In this document: piece by piece, positions 5,483-63,985 of the stretch
Layout of the letters: each line of letters opens with the position of its first letter
How positions within the stretch are numbered: the stretch's first letter is position 1
Sequence record: NC_054930.1
Reading direction: 5' to 3' (one strand)
DNA length: 64,000 bases
Source: Escherichia phage PP01
The notes under the pieces: model-generated
Databases searched by the model: none
Told to the model about the DNA's origin: nothing
The model's input: the letters and a program-made list of their open reading frames with translations, nothing else
Position numbers and translations under genes: made by a program

Positions 5483-6148
5483 TTAAAATTTCATTTTTCG
5501 ACCTTTAAACCATCCTTCTGGAATTGGGTCAGTTTTCTTAATACGTTTAGAAACTTTTTCATCCAATGAATGAATCCACATCATGCCAAATTGGGAATTC
5601 TTTTCACCTTGTTGGTGTTTATTTCTGGCGTGAGATTCTTTCATTTTATTAATAGTTTCAGGAGTATGGGTCTTACCCAAGAAAGATTTAGTATTTAAAA
5701 ATTTCTCTCTATACTTAGGATTATCCCAAAGCTGTTTAAACCTTTCTGAACCCATTTTACGATATTTTTCTTTAAGGTCTGGGTCGTTCTCAAATCTGGT
5801 TTTAAAAGCGGCAGCTCCTTTTAAGGAAGCTTCTTTCTTTTTATCCAAATATTCTTTAGTGTTTAAATGGTCCCAACCACCTTCACCACCTAATTTCAGA
5901 TTATAAACATCAGGGCGCTTTAAAAACTCTTCAGTCACAATATTCTTTTCTGACTCAAACATAGAGGTTTTATCGTCAAAGAACTCTAATATTTCTTTAG
6001 AAAAATTTTCTATACCATATTTATCTTGGGCTCTTTTTAATAATTTACCAGAACCCATATATCCATCATCTAAATTTTCGGTAGAATGAGCGCCTATATA
6101 GATTTTATTATTAATTTTATTTGTTATTTTATAAATGTAATGGAACAT
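5483..6148 (-). CDS. segB: GIY-YIG homing endonuclease SegB
   Basis: 221 aa; N-terminal GIY-YIG module (YIYKITNKINNKIYIGAHS...GYMGSG); embedded in the tRNA cluster as T4 segB is. Confidence 0.88.
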   Translation of the reverse strand: MFHYIYKITNKINNKIYIGAHSTENLDDGYMGSGKLLKRAQDKYGIENFSKEILEFFDDKTSMFESEKNIVTEEFLKRPDVYNLKLGGEGGWDHLNTKEYLDKKKEASLKGAAAFKTRFENDPDLKEKYRKMGSERFKQLWDNPKYREKFLNTKSFLGKTHTPETINKMKESHARNKHQQGEKNSQFGMMWIHSLDEKVSKRIKKTDPIPEGWFKGRKMKF

Positions 6149-7148: not shown

Positions 7149-7558
7149 TCAGCCTTCATCAACAATAGTATGAGTGTGGGCATTTACGATTTGCCACCAG
7201 TCGAAACGATTGGAACCATAATCTGGTTTATTTTCATTTTCTTTAATGATATCACGCAGTTTATCTTCTGTTTCAGCATACGCAATTAAATCATCATATC
7301 CGCCACAAGGATAATAATTATCACCTGCGAATAAAAGAAAATTTACCTTAGATGGATTTACGTAATAATGGTCTTTAGGATATTTAGTTCCTCTCCAATC
7401 AGTTACTTCAACATAACGGTAAGAAAATCCATTTTTACTTTCAATCCAACTCCACGCTTCAAAAGGAGTATTAAAAACTTTATCAGGTATTAAATTACCT
7501 TCAAAATGAGAAGGATTTGCATAATCCCAGCATAAACATAGTATTCGTTAATACTCAT
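7149..7558 (-). pseudogene. Frameshifted ORF (about 135 codons), absent from the ATG-based track
   Basis: ATG at 7556-7558 opens a frame that stops after 22 codons; a different frame continues stop-free for about 130 codons (WDYANPSHFEG...GDNYYPCGGYDDLIAY...WWQIVNAHTHTIVDEG) to a stop at 7149-7151 but has no ATG/GTG/TTG start. Confidence 0.4.
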
Positions 7559-13914: not shown

Positions 13915-14409
13915 ATGGAAGGTTCTTCTATCGACGTCACCTTTACCGCTCAATTAGAAACAGGTGAAACGTTAGTATCTATAAATATAACTAGTTACGA
14001 AGAAACTCCTGGGGTTTTAGTAGAAGAAAATCGCTTATATGGAACATATGAATCTGTATTTGGTTTCGGAAATGACGCGTTGAAATATCGTTTAGGCGAT
14101 GAATTTAAAACTGCTGCTTCATGGGAAGAACTTCCTACTGATTCTGATACTCAGCTGTATTTGTGGAAAGCTCCTCAAAATCTCCAGAAGACATTCACTT
14201 ACGAAGTAACATTAATATATGACTACCAAGAACAAAGTGAATCTGGAGGTTCTGGCAGTAATTCTAGGTCATCTTCTGATACTACTGAACCGACAGATCC
14301 TCCTGCTCCAGTAAGAAAAACACTTGTTAAAAATTATACTAAAACTATAGTTGGAAATTGGAGTCGTTGGGCTAATAAATTGAGAAGCTATGTATATGAG
14401 AGGCCATAA
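13915..14409 (+). CDS. gp5.1-like protein
   Basis: Start chosen at ATG 13915 with SD AGGAGA 4 nt upstream (the track ORF begins at an upstream TTG inside gene 5); between 5 and 5.4. Confidence 0.6.
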   Translation: MEGSSIDVTFTAQLETGETLVSINITSYEETPGVLVEENRLYGTYESVFGFGNDALKYRLGDEFKTAASWEELPTDSDTQLYLWKAPQNLQKTFTYEVTLIYDYQEQSESGGSGSNSRSSSDTTEPTDPPAPVRKTLVKNYTKTIVGNWSRWANKLRSYVYERP

Positions 14410-14703
14410 ATGTCAGGATTAAGTTATGATAAGTGTGTTACTGCTGGCCATGAAGCTTGGCCTCCAACAGCTGTGAATGCCACACAAAGTAAAGTATTCA
14501 CTGGAGGAATTGCTGTTCTAGTAGCAGGCGATCCAATTACAGAACATACAGAAATTAAAAAGCCATATGAAACACATGGCGGAGTGACACAACCTAGAAC
14601 TTCTAAGGTATATGTCACTGGAAAGAAAGCTGTTCAAATGGCTGATCCAATATCATGCGGTGATACTGTGGCTCAGGCATCATCTAAAGTATTCATTAAA
14701 TAG
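14410..14703 (+). CDS. 5.4: gp5.4 PAAR-repeat spike tip protein
   Basis: 97 aa as in T4 gp5.4; small Cys/His-containing protein directly after the gene 5 module. Confidence 0.8.
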
Positions 14704-34162: not shown

Positions 34163-34768
34163 GTGATTATTTCTAAGTTTGTTACAATAAAACCAAGAAA
34201 TCATTCAAAAATGTGGTCGACAATTCTGGGATATAAAGTATCATATCATGATACAGTATCTGTTCCAATAGAATTAATGCCAAAGAATAGTAATAAAATA
34301 GTTGACGCTAAATGTGATTTGTGTGGTATTAAATTTAGTAGAAGCATTCAGCTTTTAAATAGAACACCAACGCATGCATGTAGAAAATGTAGCATTAAAC
34401 AAGTTGCTATTAAAAATTCGGAAGTTCAATCTGGAATAAGTAGACCATGGCAAAGAGGTGATAAACATCCTCGATGGACTGGTAAAAGAAAAGAGTTTGC
34501 ATTATATGCTAGTAGAGTTCATTCTATAACTAAGTCAGCTAAAATAAGAAAAATCTGGTCAAAATGGCCAAATGCTGATAAAATAGGAGTGTGTGGCGTA
34601 GAAGGTGCTTACCAACTCGATCATAAAGTATCTATCAAATATGGATTTGATAATTTAATTCCGCCGGAAATTATAGCAAGCGTAAAAAATTTAGAAATAA
34701 TCACTTGGGAATCTAACCGAGAAAAATCAAAAAGAAATAGCGTAGATCTTTGGGATTTACTAGAATGA
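34163..34768 (+). CDS. Freestanding HNH homing endonuclease
   Basis: 201 aa; GTG start with SD GAGGA 5 nt upstream; Cys-pairs (CDLCG, CRKC) and C-terminal HNH-type motif YQLDHKVSIKYGFDN...NLEIITWESNREKS; T4 has no gene between 18 and 19. Confidence 0.7.
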   Translation: MIISKFVTIKPRNHSKMWSTILGYKVSYHDTVSVPIELMPKNSNKIVDAKCDLCGIKFSRSIQLLNRTPTHACRKCSIKQVAIKNSEVQSGISRPWQRGDKHPRWTGKRKEFALYASRVHSITKSAKIRKIWSKWPNADKIGVCGVEGAYQLDHKVSIKYGFDNLIPPEIIASVKNLEIITWESNREKSKRNSVDLWDLLE

Positions 34769-39185: not shown

Positions 39186-40751
39186 ATGACTATCAAAACT
39201 AAAGCTGAACTTTTGAACAAATGGAAGCCATTACTGGAAGGTGAAGGTTTACCGGAAATTGCTAATAGCAAACAAGCGATTATCGCTAAAATCTTTGAAA
39301 ACCAGGAAAAAGATTTCCAGACAGCTCCGGAATATAAAGACGAAAAAATTGCTCAGGCATTCGGTTCTTTCTTAACAGAAGCTGAAATCGGTGGTGACCA
39401 CGGTTACAATGCTACTAACATCGCTGCAGGTCAGACTTCTGGCGCAGTAACTCAGATTGGCCCAGCTGTTATGGGTATGGTACGTCGTGCTATTCCTAAC
39501 CTGATTGCTTTCGATATTTGCGGTGTTCAGCCGATGAACAGCCCGACTGGCCAGGTATTCGCACTGCGCGCAGTATATGGTAAAGATCCAATCGCTTCCG
39601 GTGCTAAAGAAGCATTCCACCCAATGTATGGTCCAGATGCAATGTTCTCTGGTCAGGGTGCTGCTAAGAAATTCCCAGCTCTGGCTGCTAGCACACAAAC
39701 CGTTGTAGGTGATATCTATACTCACTTCTTCCAGGAAACTGGTACCGTGTATCTGCAAGCTTCAGCTGTAGTAACAATCGATGCTGGTGCGACTGATGCT
39801 GCTAAATTAGATGCCGAAGTTAAGAAACAAATGGAAGCTGGTGTACTGGTAGAAATCGCTGAAGGTATGGCTACTTCTATCGCTGAACTTCAGGAAGGTT
39901 TCAACGGTTCTACCGATAACCCATGGAATGAAATGGGCTTCCGTATCGATAAACAAGTTATCGAAGCTAAATCTCGTCAGCTGAAAGCTGCTTACTCTAT
40001 CGAATTAGCACAAGACCTCCGCGCTGTTCACGGTATGGATGCTGATGCTGAACTGTCTGGTATTCTGGCTACAGAAATTATGCTGGAAATTAACCGTGAA
40101 GTTGTTGATTGGATTAACTACTCAGCTCAGGTTGGTAAATCTGGTATGACCCTGACTCCGGGTTCTAAAGCTGGTGTATTTGACTTCCAGGACCCAATCG
40201 ATATTCGTGGTGCTCGCTGGGCAGGTGAATCCTTTAAAGCTCTGTTGTTCCAGATTGACAAAGAAGCAGTTGAAATTGCTCGTCAGACTGGTCGCGGCGA
40301 AGGTAATTTCATTATCGCTTCCCGTAACGTAGTTAACGTTCTGGCTTCAGTTGATACTGGCATTTCTTATGCTGCACAGGGTCTGGCTACCGGCTTCAAC
40401 ACTGATACTACCAAGTCAGTATTTGCTGGTGTTCTGGGTGGTAAATACCGCGTATATATCGACCAATATGCTAAACAGGATTATTTCACTGTAGGTTATA
40501 AAGGTCCGAACGAAATGGATGCTGGTATTTACTATGCTCCATATGTAGCTCTGACTCCACTGCGTGGTTCTGATCCGAAGAACTTCCAACCGGTAATGGG
40601 ATTCAAAACTCGTTACGGTATCGGTATCAACCCATTTGCAGAATCCGCTGCTCAGGCTCCGGCTTCTCGCATCCAGAGCGGTATGCCTTCTATTCTGAAT
40701 AGCCTTGGTAAAAACGCTTACTTTAGACGTGTATATGTTAAAGGTATCTAA
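39186..40751 (+). CDS. 23: gp23 major capsid protein
   Basis: 521 aa as in T4; codon usage typical of a highly expressed gene. Confidence 0.98.
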   Translation: MTIKTKAELLNKWKPLLEGEGLPEIANSKQAIIAKIFENQEKDFQTAPEYKDEKIAQAFGSFLTEAEIGGDHGYNATNIAAGQTSGAVTQIGPAVMGMVRRAIPNLIAFDICGVQPMNSPTGQVFALRAVYGKDPIASGAKEAFHPMYGPDAMFSGQGAAKKFPALAASTQTVVGDIYTHFFQETGTVYLQASAVVTIDAGATDAAKLDAEVKKQMEAGVLVEIAEGMATSIAELQEGFNGSTDNPWNEMGFRIDKQVIEAKSRQLKAAYSIELAQDLRAVHGMDADAELSGILATEIMLEINREVVDWINYSAQVGKSGMTLTPGSKAGVFDFQDPIDIRGARWAGESFKALLFQIDKEAVEIARQTGRGEGNFIIASRNVVNVLASVDTGISYAAQGLATGFNTDTTKSVFAGVLGGKYRVYIDQYAKQDYFTVGYKGPNEMDAGIYYAPYVALTPLRGSDPKNFQPVMGFKTRYGIGINPFAESAAQAPASRIQSGMPSILNSLGKNAYFRRVYVKGI

Positions 40752-40777
40752 TCTCTAACGATAGAAACACAATTTTA

Positions 40778-40800
40778 GGGAACCTTCGGGTTCCCTTTTT
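40778..40800 (+). terminator. Rho-independent terminator after gene 23
   Basis: gggaaccttcgggttccc hairpin followed by TTTTT. Confidence 0.75.
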
Positions 40801-41501
40801 CTATTTTATACGATAGCAATCAGGCATATCATCCGCATTTATCCAATTGCGAATAGTTTTAGGACTAACTTTAAAATGCTCCGCTGCGTAATCAGGATTA
40901 TCAAATTTAACGCCCTTTATACATATTGGAATAAATTTTTTAATACCACCAAGTTTTTCAGAAATAGCTTTACGGTGTGAAATCGATATAGGTTTATTTT
41001 TTCGTGGATGAACATGTGTTTTATAATATTCATTGCGCCCTTTAACTCGCTTCGCAATAGTTTCATCAGATTGCTTAACGCCTGTTTTTGCCTTTGATAT
41101 TTTTCGTTTAGCTTCCACAGTCATTCCTTCTTTTGTTCGTATTGATAACATATTACGATATGAAGGATCTTGCAAATGAACTATAACTGGATTTCCTCTG
41201 CCACCAATAGCAGCATTATAGGTATCAGTTCTCATAACGAATTCCTCATTGACTAGTAAAGCTTCCATTTTATACATCTCCTCAGATGAGGAGAAAGAAT
41301 AAAGAATTTCTTTTTAAAGTTATGAATACCATATTTTTTGATGGATTTTTTGATGTTTACGCCAGAACCCATATAACCATCGTTTTCGTCAAGAGTAGCA
41401 TGAGCTCCGATGTAAATTTTTCCATTGATGATATTAGTAATTTGATATATTAAATATTTCATTTTAAACATCGCTCCGTTTGTATATGAATATAATATCA
41501 T
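40801..41501 (-). pseudogene. segD: segD GIY-YIG homing endonuclease gene split by a frameshift
   Basis: 82-aa ORF (41253..41501) carries the GIY-YIG module [21 protein letters not shown]...GYMGSG and ends [10 protein letters not shown]; the 158-aa ORF (40801..41277) continues in another frame; the frame switch sits in the run ctttaaaaagaaattc, where SegB reads NFSKEIL. Confidence 0.6.
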
Positions 41502-41526
41502 ATTACTTTGGTCTTGTAAATAACTT

Positions 41527-41534
41527 TATAAATA
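41527..41534 (+). promoter_or_regulatory. Late promoter TATAAATA for gene 24
   Basis: Exact TATAAATA 28 nt upstream of the gene 24 ATG. Confidence 0.6.
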
Positions 41535-41561
41535 GTATTATATTTCAACAAGGAAAATACA

Positions 41562-42845
41562 ATGGCTAAAATCAACGAACTTCTGCGCGAATCAACCACA
41601 ACGAATAGCAACTCAATCGGTCGCCCAAATCTCGTTGCTTTGACTCGCGCTACCACTAAATTAATATATTCTGACATTGTAGCAACGCAAAGAACTAATC
41701 AACCTGTTGCTGCTTTTTATGGTATCAAATACCTTAACCCAGACAACGAATTTACATTTAAAACTGGTGCTACTTACGCTGGCGAAGCCGGATATGTAGA
41801 CCGAGAACAAATCACAGAATTAACAGAAGAGTCTAAATTAACTCTCAATAAAGGCGATTTATTCAAATATAATAATATCGTTTATAAAGTATTAGAAGAT
41901 ACTCCATTTGCTGATATTGAAGAAAGCGACTTAGAGTTAGCTCTTCAGATTGCAATTGTTCTTTTAAAGGTTCGTCTATTTTCTGACGCAGCGTCAACAA
42001 GCAAATTTGAAAGCTCTGATAGTGAAATTGCGGATGCTAGATTCCAGATTAATAAATGGCAAACCGCGGTTAAATCTCGTAAACTTAAAACTGGCATCAC
42101 AGTTGAATTAGCGCAAGATTTAGAAGCAAATGGATTCGATGCTCCTAATTTCTTGGAAGATTTGCTTGCAACTGAAATGGCAGATGAAATCAATAAAGAT
42201 ATTCTGCAGTCTTTGATTACAGTGTCAAAACGCTATAAAGTTACAGGAATTACTGATAGTGGATTCATCGATTTGAGTTATGCATCTGCACCTGAAGCGG
42301 GTCGTTCATTATATCGAATGGTATGTGAAATGGTTTCGCATATCCAAAAAGAATCAACTTATACAGCAACGTTCTGTGTTGCTTCAGCTCGTGCCGCTGC
42401 GATTCTTGCTGCATCAGGTTGGTTAAAACATAAACCAGAAGATGATAAATATCTTTCACAAAATGCCTACGGGTTCTTAGCTAATGGTTTACCGCTTTAT
42501 TGCGATACTAACAGTCCATTAGATTATGTAATCGTTGGCGTAGTAGAAAATATCGGCGAAAAAGAAATTGTTGGATCAATTTTCTATGCTCCGTATACAG
42601 AAGGTCTCGACTTAGATGACCCTGAACATGTAGGTGCATTTAAAGTTGTTGTTGATCCAGAAAGCTTACAACCGTCTATCGGTTTATTAGTTAGATATGC
42701 TTTATCAGCAAATCCTTATACCGTAGCAAAAGATGAAAAAGAAGCAAGAATAATTGATGGTGGAGACATGGATAAAATGGCGGGTCGTTCAGATTTGTCT
42801 GTTTTATTAGGTGTTAAATTACCAAAAATTATTATTGATGAATAA
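41562..42845 (+). CDS. 24: gp24 capsid vertex protein
   Basis: 427 aa as in T4; gp23-like fold. Confidence 0.95.
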   Translation: MAKINELLRESTTTNSNSIGRPNLVALTRATTKLIYSDIVATQRTNQPVAAFYGIKYLNPDNEFTFKTGATYAGEAGYVDREQITELTEESKLTLNKGDLFKYNNIVYKVLEDTPFADIEESDLELALQIAIVLLKVRLFSDAASTSKFESSDSEIADARFQINKWQTAVKSRKLKTGITVELAQDLEANGFDAPNFLEDLLATEMADEINKDILQSLITVSKRYKVTGITDSGFIDLSYASAPEAGRSLYRMVCEMVSHIQKESTYTATFCVASARAAAILAASGWLKHKPEDDKYLSQNAYGFLANGLPLYCDTNSPLDYVIVGVVENIGEKEIVGSIFYAPYTEGLDLDDPEHVGAFKVVVDPESLQPSIGLLVRYALSANPYTVAKDEKEARIIDGGDMDKMAGRSDLSVLLGVKLPKIIIDE

Positions 42846-45888: not shown

Positions 45889-46569
45889 TTATTTTAATGT
45901 TACGAAAGAAGAATTGCGTGTTTCACGAATTAGAACTGATCCGTCACGATTAATGTAGTAAATTAAGCTAAACAAAGTTTGATGCGCAGATGCATGTTCA
46001 AAACTAGTTGGGTGAGATTTCCAATTCGGAGTTTCAGCAATCCACTGGTAAATCCACCAAGGAACAGTGCAGAATCCTGGATTTTTTCCAATCAACTGAA
46101 GATTCGGACTAAAGTTTTCCGGAAGAGTGAATACAGACGGCTTTTCAGATTCAATAATCTCAGCTACAGCCTGTTCGAATTTTTCTTCAACAAAAGGAGT
46201 ATCTTCAATCAAAACATCGGTATTTTCGGGAATTTTATCCGTTTCTACTACTTCAATTTTAATGTCAGATTTAACCGGAGAATCAATCAGAAGTGCTGCT
46301 TCTGGATTGACCTCTTCATCGTCATATTTTAACCCCTCTGCAGCATCAGCAGCATCGATTAAGTCTTTAATAGATAACCCATCAGTCTCTGGCATAGGTT
46401 CATTAGCGAGCTTCTGGAGGGCTTCTTCAATATCAATAACGATATTATCAAAAGATTTATTCTTTTTGACCTTTATACCAAACTGTTCAGCATATTCAGC
46501 TAATTTAGCCTTAGCTTCTTTATTATCATCAAGAGCCTTCAGCTCTGCAATATAATCTTTATCTATCAT
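45889..46569 (-). CDS. inh: Inh, inhibitor of prohead protease
   Basis: 226 aa as in T4; adjacent to hoc. Confidence 0.85.
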   Translation of the reverse strand: MIDKDYIAELKALDDNKEAKAKLAEYAEQFGIKVKKNKSFDNIVIDIEEALQKLANEPMPETDGLSIKDLIDAADAAEGLKYDDEEVNPEAALLIDSPVKSDIKIEVVETDKIPENTDVLIEDTPFVEEKFEQAVAEIIESEKPSVFTLPENFSPNLQLIGKNPGFCTVPWWIYQWIAETPNWKSHPTSFEHASAHQTLFSLIYYINRDGSVLIRETRNSSFVTLK

Positions 46570-46582
46570 AATATTTCCTCAG

Positions 46583-46590
46583 TATAAATA
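46583..46590 (+). promoter_or_regulatory. Late promoter TATAAATA for uvsW
   Basis: Exact TATAAATA 30 nt upstream of the uvsW ATG. Confidence 0.55.
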
Positions 46591-46619
46591 TAGATATATT
46601 TATTACATGGTATTTAGAC

Positions 46620-48131
46620 ATGACTGACATTAAAGTACATTTTTACGATTTTAGTCACGTGAGAATTGATTGTGAAGAAAGTACATTTCATGAACTCCGT
46701 GATTTCTTTAGCTTTGAAGCTGATGGGTATCGTTTTAATCCGAAATACAAATATGGTCACTGGGATGGACGAATCCGTCTTTTAGATTATAATCGCCTTC
46801 TTCCATTCGGTTTAGTTGGGCAAATTAAAAAGTTCTGTGATAACTTTGGCTATAAAGCCTGGATTGACCCGCAAATTAATGAAAAAGAAGAATTATCAAG
46901 AAAAGATTTTGATGAATGGATTTCTAAATTAGAAATCTATTCAGGAAATAAAAGAATTGAACCACACTGGTATCAAAAAGATGCAGTGTTCGAAGGATTA
47001 GTTAATCGTCGTAGAATTCTTAATCTTCCAACATCCGCAGGTAAATCTTTAATTCAAGCTTTGCTTGCACGTTATTATTTGGAAAATTATGAAGGTAAAA
47101 TTCTTATCATTGTTCCAACAACTGCTTTAACAACTCAGATGGCTGATGACTTTGTTGACTATCGTTTATTCAGTCATGCAATGATAAAGAAAATCGGTGG
47201 TGGAGCATCAAAAGATGATAAATATAAAAATGATGCACCAGTCGTTGTGGGTACATGGCAAACTGTAGTAAAACAACCAAAAGAATGGTTTTCCCAATTT
47301 GGTATGATGATGAATGATGAATGCCATCTTGCTACAGGAAAAAGTATTTCATCTATCATATCGGGTTTAAATAACTGCATGTTCAAATTCGGTTTGTCTG
47401 GTTCATTACGTGATGGAAAAGCCAATATCATGCAGTATGTTGGAATGTTTGGTGAAATATTTAAGCCAGTAACGACTTCTAAATTAATGGAAGATGGGCA
47501 AGTAACTGAGCTAAAAATTAATAGTATTTTTCTTCGCTATCCTGATGAGTTCACTACTAAATTAAAGGGAAAAACTTACCAAGAAGAAATAAAAATTATT
47601 ACTGGACTCAGTAAAAGAAATAAATGGATTGCTAAATTAGCTATTAAACTTGCACAAAAAGATGAAAACGCTTTTGTCATGTTTAAGCATGTATCACATG
47701 GTAAAGCTATTTTCGATTTAATTAAAAATGAATACGATAAAGTTTATTACGTATCAGGGGAAGTTGATACCGAAACACGCAACGTAATGAAAACCTTAGC
47801 TGAAAACGGTAAAGGAATAATTATAGTAGCTAGTTATGGTGTATTTTCTACTGGTATTTCAGTTAAAAATCTGCATCACGTTATTTTAGCGCACGGTGTT
47901 AAATCTAAAATTATTGTATTGCAAACAATAGGTCGCGTATTACGTAAGCATGGTTCTAAAACAATCGCAACGGTCTGGGACCTCATAGATGATTGTGGTG
48001 TTAAGCCAAAATCTGCTAATACGAAAAAGAAATATGTTCATTTGAACTATCTTTTAAAACACGGCATTGATCGTATTCAGCGCTACGCAGATGAAAAATT
48101 TAATTACGTAATGAAAACAGTTAATTTATAA
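46620..48131 (+). CDS. uvsW: UvsW RNA-DNA / DNA helicase
   Basis: 503 aa; SF2 helicase motifs (PTSAGKS Walker A, DECH box); matches T4 UvsW. Confidence 0.96.
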   Translation: MTDIKVHFYDFSHVRIDCEESTFHELRDFFSFEADGYRFNPKYKYGHWDGRIRLLDYNRLLPFGLVGQIKKFCDNFGYKAWIDPQINEKEELSRKDFDEWISKLEIYSGNKRIEPHWYQKDAVFEGLVNRRRILNLPTSAGKSLIQALLARYYLENYEGKILIIVPTTALTTQMADDFVDYRLFSHAMIKKIGGGASKDDKYKNDAPVVVGTWQTVVKQPKEWFSQFGMMMNDECHLATGKSISSIISGLNNCMFKFGLSGSLRDGKANIMQYVGMFGEIFKPVTTSKLMEDGQVTELKINSIFLRYPDEFTTKLKGKTYQEEIKIITGLSKRNKWIAKLAIKLAQKDENAFVMFKHVSHGKAIFDLIKNEYDKVYYVSGEVDTETRNVMKTLAENGKGIIIVASYGVFSTGISVKNLHHVILAHGVKSKIIVLQTIGRVLRKHGSKTIATVWDLIDDCGVKPKSANTKKKYVHLNYLLKHGIDRIQRYADEKFNYVMKTVNL

Positions 48132-48144
48132 GGGCTTCGGCCCT
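48131..48144 (+). other. GC stem-loop (agggcTTCGgccct) between uvsW and uvsW.1
   Basis: 5-bp G/C stem with UUCG loop. Confidence 0.35.
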
Positions 48145-48387
48145 TTGGAGAAAAAGATGTTACTAGAATTTAAACAATTTCTTTATGAAGCTTCTATTGA
48201 TGAATTTATGGGTAAAATTGCCTCTTGTCAAACATTAGAAGGTTTAGAAGAACTTGAAGCTTATTATAAGAAAAGAGTCAAAGAAACTGAATTAAAAGAT
48301 ACTGATGACATCTCTGTGAGAGATGCTTTGGCAGGAAAAAGAGCTGAATTAGAAGATTCAGATGATGAAGTAGAAGAAAGCTTTTAA
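48145..48387 (+). CDS. uvsW.1: UvsW.1
   Basis: 80 aa acidic protein immediately after uvsW as in T4. Confidence 0.8.
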   Translation: MEKKMLLEFKQFLYEASIDEFMGKIASCQTLEGLEELEAYYKKRVKETELKDTDDISVRDALAGKRAELEDSDDEVEESF

Positions 48388-57135: not shown

Positions 57136-59193
57136 CTACATTTTGAACTTTTTAGACATTCCGTTGATGTTAACCAAAGAAGCCAAGATTTGAGAAACTT
57201 CATTTTCCTCTTCTTTTGATTCTTCTACAAGGAATTGATTAAATCCAGCCATTGGACGAACTTCACCAGTTTCCATTAGATGGTCGCCATCATATACCGA
57301 TTCTTTTAATTGTTCAGAAGGAGGAACGATTGTGCCTTCGATTAAATACTTATTATAAGCAGTTTCTTTCATCATGTACGTACTCACTTTATTAATCTTC
57401 AGCAAAATTCCACGCGGTAAAATAACTTCAGCTTCTGACGGAAATCCTGATAAATGCCCTGGAACGATAACTTTGATTCGCTCAGCTCCTTTAATTACCA
57501 TACCCACGCTAGTTTCAGCATCTTCATTCGCATAAGCAGAATGACTGCCCATATGCATTAAATCTTCAGCATCAACGGAACCTTCTCCTTCACCAGAAAA
57601 TACTGCACCGGAATCATCTAGAGCCATATAGTTTTTACCATACTCACCGAAGATATTTGGTTTAAGCGATGTGGATACGAAGTTCTTGAAATAGAACATT
57701 TTATTTTCAATATTATGACGTAAAGTTTTAAAGGTAACTTCTTGTCCACGGTAAAGTGTAGTTCCTGGAGGAAGAACTGATCCTTTGGCAAAGGCAGAAT
57801 CCATTGTCTCGATGTGTTTAATAGCTCGTTCCATGTATTCTTCACGTGTAGAATCCGGTTTACCTAAAAGGAACGAGTTCATTTCAACATATGAATCTGC
57901 ACAATAATCTTCAATTACATCAGACTCAGCCTGAGTTAATCCTTTTGGAGTTACTTCAGTACTTGCATATTCATACGCTTGAGAAGCAGACTCATTAATC
58001 AATTTATAAACGCCATTCATGACAAATTGAATAATAGCTACCTTTTCATCTGGCGTGGCTTTAGAACCTTTAACTAAATCATTGACGATTTTCTTAATAA
58101 CATCAAAGCTATTAGAAATATTAATGTCAGCAAGATCGCTTAAAATTTTATCAGTTTTATAATCAAAAAATTCTTTATTCTTTAAATATTCTTGAGAACC
58201 TTGATATGTTATATCGCTCTGTAACTTGATAGATGGATCACGTAAACGTGCATGAGCCAATGCAATATGATTTCGGAAGCTTTCTAGTTCATAATCACTA
58301 GATTTAAAACGAGAAGCACTTCTCATACCACCGATAGCTCCTTTGCTGAAGTTTGAACCAACCTGAATAACGCCGGAGTTCATTGGTCCTTCTGCTTTAT
58401 ATACCGGAACTTTAGATTCAAACTCTTGGTATTTCTTAGCAGCGAAGCTATCACCCTGAAGTGAAGCATCGACGGTAGAGTATTGAGCTTGTGCTGCTAA
58501 TCGACGACTAATTTTAGTTTTCTGAATAACAGCTTGATCCGTGCGCTTATCATTTTCTAAAGCAATAGAAGCGGCAACAGCGACAGCTTTAGGAACAGCA
58601 TTACCTGTTTTAACATCTACATAAACATCACCAACCTTTGATTCAACTTTTGTGAATAACTCAGTTGAAATAGGAGGTACACCTGGAATGTCTTCTAAAT
58701 TGGCATTTTTACGGTAAACCATAATATATGCATATTTCTTATCATAGTCCCAGATTTCCTTTAAAAGAACATATCGACCTGCTCCTTTAGTACGTACTAA
58801 ACGGTCGGCAATAACTTGCATTTGACGAGCTGCGCCATTTGTTTTACTCTTTAGTACGCGGAATAAGCATGCGTCAATTTTGTACTGTTTCATTGTCTGA
58901 AGAGCAGTATCAAAAACCGCATTAATGACACCAATTGGATTTCCACCCAAGTTTTTAAGTTTAACTAATGATAGTTTCTCATTAACACCTATCATTACGA
59001 TATGCATCATTTTATCGCCTGGCTTAACGTTTTTATTCGTATCACCGCCAGAGGTGTATGTACAAAATCTAAATCCAGGAAGCACGCTTTCTTCGCCTGC
59101 TTGAATAGCAAAAATTTGAGGTATTTTATGCTTAGGATTTAAGTTAACAACCGGCGCCGAAGCGCCGTCAAATAATTCTGTAATAAGTTCCAT
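57136..59193 (-). CDS. Alt-like ADP-ribosyltransferase, second tandem paralogue (685 aa)
   Basis: N-terminus MELITELFDGASAPVVNLNPKHKIPQIFAIQ parallels the upstream paralogue; C-terminal ART signature: Arg (LYRGQ), STS motif (FVSTSL), Glu-rich catalytic region (EAEVILPRG). Confidence 0.8.
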   Translation of the reverse strand: MELITELFDGASAPVVNLNPKHKIPQIFAIQAGEESVLPGFRFCTYTSGGDTNKNVKPGDKMMHIVMIGVNEKLSLVKLKNLGGNPIGVINAVFDTALQTMKQYKIDACLFRVLKSKTNGAARQMQVIADRLVRTKGAGRYVLLKEIWDYDKKYAYIMVYRKNANLEDIPGVPPISTELFTKVESKVGDVYVDVKTGNAVPKAVAVAASIALENDKRTDQAVIQKTKISRRLAAQAQYSTVDASLQGDSFAAKKYQEFESKVPVYKAEGPMNSGVIQVGSNFSKGAIGGMRSASRFKSSDYELESFRNHIALAHARLRDPSIKLQSDITYQGSQEYLKNKEFFDYKTDKILSDLADINISNSFDVIKKIVNDLVKGSKATPDEKVAIIQFVMNGVYKLINESASQAYEYASTEVTPKGLTQAESDVIEDYCADSYVEMNSFLLGKPDSTREEYMERAIKHIETMDSAFAKGSVLPPGTTLYRGQEVTFKTLRHNIENKMFYFKNFVSTSLKPNIFGEYGKNYMALDDSGAVFSGEGEGSVDAEDLMHMGSHSAYANEDAETSVGMVIKGAERIKVIVPGHLSGFPSEAEVILPRGILLKINKVSTYMMKETAYNKYLIEGTIVPPSEQLKESVYDGDHLMETGEVRPMAGFNQFLVEESKEEENEVSQILASLVNINGMSKKFKM

Positions 59194-59196
59194 GAT

Positions 59197-61293
59197 TTAT
59201 CCTTGAACGAACTTGTAAGGCATGTTTGTAATATCTATGCAAGACGCAATAATTCCAAGAGATGATTCTACTTTCTGTTTAATATTTGATGAAACAAATG
59301 ATGCAAAGTCAACTCTGTCTTCTATTTCAATATCATCTGTCATTGCAACTACTTCGCCGGTTTCCATTAGACGGTCACCGTCATAAATTACTGATTCGGT
59401 GAGTTCTTCCGTAGTCATAACTTCAGCTTGAATGAGTTTTGTATTATTAGATGTTGTTCCGTCATTATTAGAAGCATCAGTTATTTTATTAACTTTGACC
59501 ATCAATCCGCGTGGTAGAATAACTTCAGCTTCTGTTGCTATTCCGAGACTTCCTGGATATACAACATTAACTTTATGAGCTCCATCAATTGCCCATCCTA
59601 TTTGAACTTTAACGTATTCAGGATTTTCTTTATACGCTCTTATTTCGTTTGGATTGATAGTTATTCCTTCTTCATTTTTATCAACTGTTAATTCATTACG
59701 AGCTTCTGGTTCTAAAAGACCTATACCAGCATGTGTAATTCCAAAACGTCCAAAAATGATAGGAGTTAAAGAAGTAGATACAAAATTTCTGAAATAGAAC
59801 ACTTTATTTTTAACTAGTGCTTCGTATATAGGAGCAGTCATGCTTTGAGCACGATAAACTGTAATGCCTTCTGGTATACGGTCACCATTTTCAAAAGCTG
59901 AATCTAAATTATTTATCGCAGATTCAATTTCTTTTTCACTCATTACATCATATCGTTCTGGATTGTAGCGGCCTAAAAGAAGATTATTGATGTCAGTATA
60001 TCCTGATCCACAATACTCTCTAATGCCGCGCTTTTGCGATGGAGTATATTTAGAACCATCACGTGCAATGGTAATATCAATCATTGGACCTGCACCAATT
60101 CCAGAAAAGCTATAAATCATTCGTTTGAGGAATTTAGTTTTTGCTGCGTTCCAGGAATTTTTAGTTATTTCTTCCCAGACTTCATCTGGCTGCCCTTTAC
60201 GAGTTTTATTATGTTTATCAAGCCAATTATCTTTATATTCTTCAAAGAATTGATTAACAGCTGCTGCGTATTTCTCTAAACATTTTATTGAAGTAGTTGG
60301 TTCATTTTTAATCGCATTAAGAATTACATCTTTAATTTTTTCAGAAACTTCATTAACCTCACTTTTTGAAAAGAATTTATAATCATAGTGAAGTTCATCT
60401 GCAGTTCCTTCAGCAATAATTTTTGCTGCCTTAGTTTTAGAAGCTAATGAATTAATTCCAAGTTTCATTTCTTCTGCTTCAGGAATTAAAGGAGCTGTAG
60501 CAGGTTTATTGAAATTAGCTGCGGTAGATTCATACTTCTGGAATAATTCACTTTCAAATCTAGAAGATTCTAATGATTGACTTTGCGCAATTGCTCTACG
60601 GGAAATTTTAACTTTAACGATTACAGCTTGGTCAGAACGTTTATCATTTTCTTGTGCAATAGAAGCAGCAATTGCCTCATTTTTAGTTACTTGAGCTCCA
60701 GTATCTTTATTAATATAAACATCGCCGACTTTCGATTCAACTTTAGTAAAGAGCTCGGTACTAATTTCCGGAACTCCTGGAATGTCTTCTAGTGATACAT
60801 TTTTGCGATGTATAAGAATATATGCATACTTTTTATCATAATCCCAGAGTTCCTTAAGAAGGACGTATCTGCCACCTGAACGACTACGGATAAGTCTATC
60901 AGCAATAACTTGAATTTGTCGAGCTTGACCAGCAGTTTTAGACTTAAGAATACGAAGCATGCAGGCATCAATTTTATACTGACGCATTGTTTGCATTGCA
61001 ATAGTAAAAACTGAATTGATATAATTAATTGGGCTTGGACCGAGACCTTTTAATTTAGCAATTGAACCTTTAGCAGTTAATGTAAAAGGAACAATATGCA
61101 TCATTTTATCGCCCATTTTTAAATCGCGATTAGTATCACCTCCAGATGTATAGGTACATAAACGAAAGCCTGGTTGTTCAATTGCGTCATCAACGTGAAC
61201 TGAAAAAATTTGTGGTATTTTCTTCTTTGGATTTAAGTTTGTAATCGGAAGAGTAGTATCTTCGTCAAATAATTCTGTAATAAGTTCCATCAT
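59197..61293 (-). CDS. alt: Alt ADP-ribosyltransferase (698 aa), packaged head protein
   Basis: N-terminus MMELITELFDEDTTLPITNL... as I recall for T4 Alt; ART signature VYRAQ, FVSTSL, EAEVILPRG; own late promoter. Confidence 0.8.
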   Translation of the reverse strand: MMELITELFDEDTTLPITNLNPKKKIPQIFSVHVDDAIEQPGFRLCTYTSGGDTNRDLKMGDKMMHIVPFTLTAKGSIAKLKGLGPSPINYINSVFTIAMQTMRQYKIDACMLRILKSKTAGQARQIQVIADRLIRSRSGGRYVLLKELWDYDKKYAYILIHRKNVSLEDIPGVPEISTELFTKVESKVGDVYINKDTGAQVTKNEAIAASIAQENDKRSDQAVIVKVKISRRAIAQSQSLESSRFESELFQKYESTAANFNKPATAPLIPEAEEMKLGINSLASKTKAAKIIAEGTADELHYDYKFFSKSEVNEVSEKIKDVILNAIKNEPTTSIKCLEKYAAAVNQFFEEYKDNWLDKHNKTRKGQPDEVWEEITKNSWNAAKTKFLKRMIYSFSGIGAGPMIDITIARDGSKYTPSQKRGIREYCGSGYTDINNLLLGRYNPERYDVMSEKEIESAINNLDSAFENGDRIPEGITVYRAQSMTAPIYEALVKNKVFYFRNFVSTSLTPIIFGRFGITHAGIGLLEPEARNELTVDKNEEGITINPNEIRAYKENPEYVKVQIGWAIDGAHKVNVVYPGSLGIATEAEVILPRGLMVKVNKITDASNNDGTTSNNTKLIQAEVMTTEELTESVIYDGDRLMETGEVVAMTDDIEIEDRVDFASFVSSNIKQKVESSLGIIASCIDITNMPYKFVQG

Positions 61294-63254: not shown

Positions 63255-63985
63255 TAGAATGCTCCTTGAAAAATATTATCACCACTAGTAGGTCTATTAT
63301 ACAAATACTCTATGCCACCAGGTTTAATATAGTTCCATGTCTGAAACGGATGTGTCTGATATGGATGATATGGATGATTATAAGGATTAAATCCAGGCGT
63401 TCTCCAGGTAGTGTTCCAAGGAAAAGAATCGTTTTTAACCATCTTCTCAATTACATCTTTTATAGCTTTTTCACTATCAAAACTTTCTTTATTTTCCTTT
63501 GGTGAAAAAAGCTTATTTTCTACATCATTCCATGTATAAACTCGCTGCGCAGTTTTTGGAATATTGTCACGCTCTCCTCGAGCCATCCAATAAACTGGAA
63601 CATTTAATATTTCACTCGCATGATCGCAGTGATGAGCGAGATCGTCAATATAACAAATTACGTTATATTTCTCTTTTGCCTTTTTGAACAGCTCTTCTTT
63701 TGAAGAATCATGACCACACATCATTACTTCTGAGAAGGCACCGGGAAAAAGAGCATTCAAATTAAATTGACGATTCAACAGAGCGTCAATAGAATCACCC
63801 AATGCTGTAACAGCTACAAAATTATAATCTTCCTTTAATTTGTTAATTACACACAGGGCATCTTTATACGGAGACAAGTAACGAATAAAATCTGAACGAT
63901 TGTATTTTTCAATTAACTTGACGCCAAGTTCTTCGTCACAATTAAAGAGTTTACCTGGAGAAATAAATTTCTCATCTTGGATCAT
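63254..63985 (-). CDS. Hypothetical protein (30.2 position)
   Basis: 243 aa ORF; His/Pro/Tyr-rich segment NPYNHPYHPYQTHPFQTW near the C-terminus. Confidence 0.6.
   Translation of the reverse strand: MIQDEKFISPGKLFNCDEELGVKLIEKYNRSDFIRYLSPYKDALCVINKLKEDYNFVAVTALGDSIDALLNRQFNLNALFPGAFSEVMMCGHDSSKEELFKKAKEKYNVICYIDDLAHHCDHASEILNVPVYWMARGERDNIPKTAQRVYTWNDVENKLFSPKENKESFDSEKAIKDVIEKMVKNDSFPWNTTWRTPGFNPYNHPYHPYQTHPFQTWNYIKPGGIEYLYNRPTSGDNIFQGAF

Follow-up and report, generated by a model that had tools for sequence, protein, structure and literature searches.

The segD locus of phage PP01

The window, by which we mean the whole 64-kb stretch of PP01 DNA analysed here, is a segment of a Tequatrovirus (T4-like) genome with ~96-97% identity to T4, PST, ECML-134 and T6 over 25 kb. 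No record identical to the window was found in the phage collection. The segD gene is on the minus strand, antisense to its neighbours, genes 23 and 24, and has the same locus and orientation in T4 (Table 1). The bounds of the segD cassette are set by contigs that have an identical gp23 and no segD, which align with the window through position 40762 and again from position 41550. Among the 641 phage records that match the window, 51 contain segD, and its distribution is patchy even among close relatives, some with identical gp23, as expected of a dispensable mobile gene.

Table 1. Coordinates of segD, its flanking genes and signals, and of trna.3 in the window
Feature	Position	Strand	Remarks
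trna.3	7152-7558	-	G3 near 7526, where T4 has G4
Gene 23	39186-40751	+	flanks segD
Free-standing segD cassette	40763..41549	-	787 bp; ~60 bp instead in segD-less relatives
Gene 23 intrinsic terminator hairpin	40777..40796	+	abuts the segD stop codon
3' ORF	40801-41277	-	158 aa; starts MYKMEALLV
segD 3' part, -1 frame	40801..41313	-	170 codons (Lys54-Lys223) and stop
5' ORF	41253-41501	-	82 aa
segD 5' fragment from T4-type start	41253..41471	-	54 native codons with GIY and YIG, 18 out-of-frame codons, TAG at 41253-41255
7-bp hairpin UCUCCUC-AUCU-GAGGAGA	41277..41294	-	begins 15 nt downstream of the AAG codon; in MFE and centroid folds
Lesion, A5 (T5 on the plus strand)	41311-41315	-	A6 in intact segD, from alignment with T4 and RB18
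GGAG ribosome-binding sequence	41474..41477	-	2 nt 5' of ATG 41471, 11 nt 5' of ATG 41462
Putative sigma-70-like promoter, consensus match only	41492..41520	-	TTTACA, 17 nt, TATTAT, upstream TG (TG-n-TATTAT); 10/12 positions
Gene 24	41562-42845	+	flanks segD

The GGAG sequence upstream of the segD start agrees with the ribosome-binding sequence described for this gene (PMC2988022). Farther upstream lies a match to the sigma-70 promoter consensus, whose hexamers and TG are unchanged in the alignment with T4. No recognised segD promoter is reported in PMC2988022, where segD is said to lie antisense to genes 23 and 24 and to be, probably, barely transcribed. On the opposite strand, the T4 late-promoter consensus TATAAATA is found at 41527-41534 (+), 27 nt upstream of gene 24 and within the segD cassette. 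Since this position falls within 40763-41549, gene 24, which is essential, seems to have its promoter on the mobile cassette.

The window also differs from T4 at other loci of this kind. Orthologues of T4 segC, segE, 5.3, e.2 and ipI were not found anywhere in the window (for example at 14406-14410 and 46569-46626). segB is present, with just 83% identity to T4 SegB; the gene is intact (5486-6148) and its product is BBC14473.1 of PP01. Together, the missing seg orthologues and the divergent segB indicate a homing-endonuclease complement unlike that of T4. In T4, genes 18 and 19 are separated by no more than a 117-nt spacer; in the window, an ORF of 201 aa (34163-34768, +) lies between them. 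It matches phrog_5104 (unknown function), has a weak match to a homing-endonuclease PHROG and none in Pfam, and by eye contains CxxC pairs and an HNH-like motif. From these motifs, it is probably another free-standing endonuclease cassette. Elsewhere in the window, two full-length alt (ADP-ribosyltransferase) paralogues are arranged in tandem on the minus strand (57145-59193 and 59200-61290). In T4, just the alt.-1/alt.-2 remnants are left of the second copy, while T2 has two alt genes, like the window.

segD lacks one base in an A-run

In the deposited sequence, segD appears as two ORFs of 82 and 158 aa in different frames, both of which are present as the initial annotation had it. When T4 SegD is used as a tblastn query, residues 1-57 match in one frame and residues 54-223, with 100% identity, in the adjacent frame, so that the split segD is not a chance pattern of ORFs. 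The split had been ascribed to the loss of one base from a homopolymer, and an alignment against intact T4 segD had been proposed to verify this. Indeed, in an alignment of 901 nt with RB18 and T4 exactly one base is missing, in a run that has five A residues here and six in intact segD, and putting one A back restores an ORF of 223 aa whose product is 100% identical to the SegD proteins of T4 and RB18. The run quoted in the initial annotation, ctttaaaaagaaattc, is the affected one, and its location "around 41300" was ~12 nt off (Table 1). The comparison with the intact SegB of the window, from which the loss had been deduced, also holds (ENFSKEIL in SegB, HNFKKEIL in SegD). Across the lesion, the 0-frame reads UUU AAA AAG AAA.

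The only other difference from RB18 in the 901 nt is a single synonymous change at 40976, and segD is 99.2-99.8% identical at the DNA level to its counterparts in T4 and RB18. Apart from A5 and this one change, segD shows no sign of decay, with no extra stop codons, indels or amino-acid changes. As restoring the A gives a protein without a single amino-acid change relative to T4 and RB18 SegD, the lesion, if real, is very recent.

All 51 other segD records have A6 at this site (62 nt aligned to the 61-nt query, with 98.4% identity). Exact-pattern scans for the A5 allele in IMG/VR, the JGI metagenomes and the GTDB genomes gave no match; the A6 controls in these three collections gave 0, 1 and 0 matches, so that these negatives carry no weight. 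The segD 5' product was not found in a collection of 15 billion proteins. Several Logan contigs encode the exact 155-aa product and were considered as independent sightings of A5. They were rejected because all have A6 at the site, segD being broken elsewhere in them or truncated by adapter sequence. In exact look-ups with gp23 and gp24, the closest contig returned was at most 98.9% identical to the window, and none was identical in this region.

segD contains five A/T runs of at least 6 in 672 nt, compared with a window mean of 0.66, and three of its five A6 runs lie within 52 nt. One-base changes in segD also occur in public read sets. In contigs from SRR34076308 (near contig position 2930) and ERR11565041 (near contig position 155), the second A-run of segD, located ~30 nt upstream of the window lesion, is A7 instead of A6, which breaks the gene in two different sequence backgrounds, and a third contig has yet another one-base deletion in segD. 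On all three contigs, the genes beside segD have normal lengths.

The break lies within the GIY-YIG domain

The T4-type start of segD is at 41471 (MFKMKY...) or 41462, and the 5' product would consequently be 72 or 69 aa long rather than the 82 aa of the initial annotation. This annotation had also equated the 5' ORF with the GIY-YIG catalytic module and the 3' ORF with the remainder of the protein; the break in fact falls after Lys54, inside the GIY-YIG domain. Intact SegD matches Pfam GIY-YIG over residues 5-76 and SegE_GIY-YIG over residues 33-84, and in the 5' fragment the matches to GIY-YIG (PF01541) and SegE_GIY-YIG (PF19835) are partial and below threshold. The 5' fragment retains the motifs KYLIYQ...GKIYIG, with the invariant Tyr, Tyr and Gly columns that are common to I-TevI and SegB/C/E in our alignment. 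The invariant Glu and Tyr-Asn columns of the alignment with I-TevI, SegB, SegC and SegE come after the break, in the other frame. There, the 3' part of segD encodes these conserved residues of the GIY-YIG domain and a candidate NUMOD3/HTH-like DNA-binding region, for which the NUMOD3 and HTH matches are all weak and under the Pfam cut-offs; similarity to the DNA-binding domain of I-TevI (1i3j) is also weak (E=0.43). With the frameshift after Lys54, no single polypeptide contains the complete domain (GIY, YIG, Glu and Asn). Judging from the distribution of these residues, neither product should be an active nuclease, since the GIY-YIG domain is cut in two by the frameshift.

The product of the 158-aa ORF is identical to BBC14515.1 / YP_010073548.1, which is named "SegD homing endonuclease [Escherichia phage PP01]" (PP01 accession LC348379, as cited in PMC11237537). 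The 3' arm of the predicted hairpin downstream of the lesion contains an SD-like GAGGAG that immediately precedes the in-frame ATG at 41277; the ATG at 41268 follows it at a distance of 9 nt. The sequence of this hairpin is the same in intact T4 segD.

Frameshifts elsewhere in the window

We surveyed the window for frameshifts by tblastn with 85 T4 proteins and by a DNA-level indel scan against T4. Among the 70 T4 genes that have orthologues in the window, two carry uncompensated coding frameshifts, namely segD and trna.3. Every other indel relative to T4 that is not a multiple of three is either intergenic or compensated, and ~40 kb of essential structural genes are without any uncompensated frameshift. 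The broken trna.3 consists of a 22-aa ORF (7490-7558) followed by 125 intact codons that have no start codon and are 98% identical to T4. In a comparison of several hundred T-even records, no other had this G3 allele.

At uvsW (48120-48160, +), the window has a TAA codon, then a GC hairpin, a GGAG sequence and a separate uvsW.1 ORF, while the RefSeq T4 genome (NC_000866.4) has a fused uvsW of 587 aa with a "sequence discrepancies" note. The uvsW split was considered as another lesion of the window and rejected, since both T2 records share the two-gene layout, which makes the T4 reference the odd one.

Origin and consequences of the A5 allele

The explanation that we prefer, with a probability of about 0.5, is that segD in PP01 is a genuine and very recent null allele. 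One A would have been lost from the A6 run by replication slippage, and translation from the normal start would yield 54 native residues and then 18 nonsense residues before it ends. The two halves of the domain, one with GIY/YIG and one with Glu/Asn, would then no longer be part of one chain, and the endonuclease would be dead. Because segD is a selfish, dispensable, free-standing homing-endonuclease cassette, the phage would lose nothing by this knockout, which may represent the first step of pseudogene decay. This explanation is consistent with the richness of segD in slippage-prone runs and with the +/-1 changes found nearby in other read sets. Furthermore, segD and trna.3 are both dispensable in T4, and the occurrence of both frameshifts in dispensable genes, with the essential structural genes spared, favours real mutations that are tolerated. 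This argument would be weakened if the submitters had corrected well-known essential genes by hand. What counts against a null allele is that both frameshifts in the window are unique one-base deletions in homopolymers without further decay, and a sequencing undercall would look alike.

Sequencing or assembly error is the main alternative, and this and a pseudogene or null allele, both of which the initial annotation had put forward, are viable. In this case, segD of PP01 would truly be intact, with A6, and one base of the homopolymer would have been missed in the deposited sequence, which we regard as a credible possibility at rather less than even odds. It would fit with the uniqueness of A5 (0 of 51 other segD records), with its absence from three further sequence collections (which hold almost no segD), with the missing 5' product among the 15 billion proteins and with the lack of accompanying decay, as well as with a second unique homopolymer deletion in the same window, the G4 to G3 change that breaks trna.3. 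A control is provided by the T2 record LC348380, which belongs to PP01's BBC protein-accession series and has a unique A4 to A3 change at the nudE stop in addition to an A7/A8 discrepancy. Compared with an independent T2 sequence (MH751506) over 100 kb, LC348380 shows 4 substitutions and 2 one-base homopolymer indels, the latter at positions 63535 (nudE stop, A4 to A3) and 158390 (A8/A7) of LC348380.1. Of 504 records, two other T2 genomes among them, only LC348380 has the nudE-stop deletion, which results in an implausible 972-nt "nudE" CDS that overlaps gene e. About 2 such discrepancies per 100 kb would be a rate sufficient to explain both PP01 frameshifts, and an undercall is therefore plausible. 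On the other hand, the implied error rate is low, and the essential genes are unbroken although the majority of the 380 A/T runs of at least 5 are located in them. Were errors random, two out of two would be expected to fall outside the ~63% essential part in ~14% of cases, an estimate based on which genes are essential in T4. Real differences between stocks could equally account for the T2 discrepancies. Spontaneous mutation spectra of T-even phages are rich in homopolymer frameshifts, so that the T2 control is not decisive.

Two further explanations assign a function to the split gene. According to the initial annotation, expression of segD might need a frameshift; full-length SegD would then be produced when tRNA-Lys, paired with AAG at UUU_AAA_AAG, slips by -1 to AAA, or from transcripts to which the polymerase has added an A, and the arrangement could act as a throttle on a potentially self-cutting nuclease. 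A -1 slip on A_AAG would give the exact wild-type sequence ...NFKKEILY..., a stable hairpin lies downstream of the slip site, among the tetramers of E. coli A_AA.G is the one that shifts most readily (PMC4066793), and there is a precedent in "savior indels", which are compensated by frameshifting at trace levels, as in the thymidine kinase of herpesvirus (PMC5009743). However, the two-frame arrangement is not conserved, with A5 in 0 of 51 relatives, and the heptamer is U_AAA_AAG rather than X_XXZ_ZZN, which leaves just the A_AAG tetramer. Tetramers without stimulators shift at ~0.15%, compared with a background of 0.11% (PMC4066793). Here, the hairpin is located 15 nt past the site instead of the usual 5-9 nt, the fold has no significant excess of stability over shuffled sequences (z = -1.4), and the sequence has no SD ~10 nt upstream of the slip site. 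Efficient slippage by RNA polymerase needs runs of about 7-9 or more, and A5 is far under this length. Examples of transcriptional slippage are reviewed in PMC5009743. Trace read-through is possible, whereas an evolved expression mechanism is not supported, and with a weak site and no properly spaced stimulator we consider regulated recoding of segD highly improbable.

The other functional explanation, which we consider very unlikely, holds that the 3' ORF is made alone from ATG 41268 or 41277 behind GAGGAG, as a DNA-binding protein of 155-158 aa that lacks nuclease activity and has a role of its own, such as in site binding, repression or protection. The spacing of GAGGAG from ATG 41268 would suit such initiation, and internal starts are annotated in T4 genes 17, 21 and 26'. 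The 3' fragment also keeps the candidate NUMOD3/HTH-like region and weakly resembles the DNA-binding domain of I-TevI, an enzyme that doubles as a transcriptional autorepressor (PMC2988022). Nevertheless, intact segD has the same internal ATGs and SD-like sequence, so that nothing in this arrangement is specific to A5, and the GAGGAG is predicted to be sequestered in the hairpin. The Pfam matches of the 3' fragment all remain under threshold, and the 3' ORF alone shows no conservation signal. Even taken together, functional recoding and an independently functional 3' fragment are improbable. A variant that we regard as a long shot would have the five A6 runs of segD serve as reversible on/off switches of an endonuclease able to cut the genome that carries it, with the A5 "off" state leaking trace amounts of wild-type SegD by a -1 slip of tRNA-Lys at U_AAA_AAG, as a phage-encoded "savior indel". 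The +/-1 changes at other segD A-runs in unrelated read sets would be compatible with such a switch, and equally with neutral mutation at hot spots or with sequencing error.

Whether it is a null allele or an undercall, the segD finding is ordinary and involves no new mechanism. The truncated segD ORF is already public in the GenBank annotation of PP01, as the 158-aa ORF only, and the case would at most add one more dispensable homing-endonuclease gene knocked out by homopolymer slippage. For curation, segD and trna.3 in this record should be flagged as frameshifted or verified. The 158-aa "SegD homing endonuclease" entry should not be taken as a functional enzyme, and SegD activity should not be assumed when PP01 is used in T-even crosses.

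Comparison with known systems

The PP01 gene corresponds to that of T4 SegD (NP_049788), a free-standing GIY-YIG homing endonuclease encoded at the same locus in the same antisense orientation and identical in sequence once the A is restored. The two differ in that T4 segD has A6 and is intact, whereas segD in the window has A5 and an ORF that is split after Lys54. T4 SegD has reportedly been studied by Sokolov et al. in Virology in 2018.

The lesion also resembles homopolymer under-calls in deposited phage genomes, such as the nudE stop in T2 LC348380 and the historical discrepancy at uvsW/uvsW.1 in the T4 reference, in that a one-base difference unique to a single record produces an odd ORF. 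The T2 case differs from that of PP01, since independent sequences of the same phage disagree with LC348380, and a second sequence of PP01 was not found. With the -1 frameshifting sites of dnaX and IS911/IS3 (A_AAA_AAG with stimulators), segD shares a shift-prone AAG lysine codon after a run of A's. Unlike those sites, its heptamer starts with U, has no upstream SD and a hairpin that is 15 nt off, and is not conserved.

The A-runs of T4 provide a parallel to a null allele. The A6 runs of rII are frameshift hot spots in T4, and segD shows, in one of its A6 runs, the same kind of +/-1 change as these Streisinger-type sites; by analogy, replication slippage may likewise have been responsible here. 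Finally, I-TevIII of T4, annotated as a "defective DNA endonuclease" with a deletion in its proximal half, is a selfish gene inactivated in an otherwise functional phage, as segD would be in PP01. Homing-endonuclease genes pass through a cycle of gain, fixation and decay. I-TevIII lost a large segment long ago, whereas segD in the window has a single fresh lesion of one base, which may not be real.
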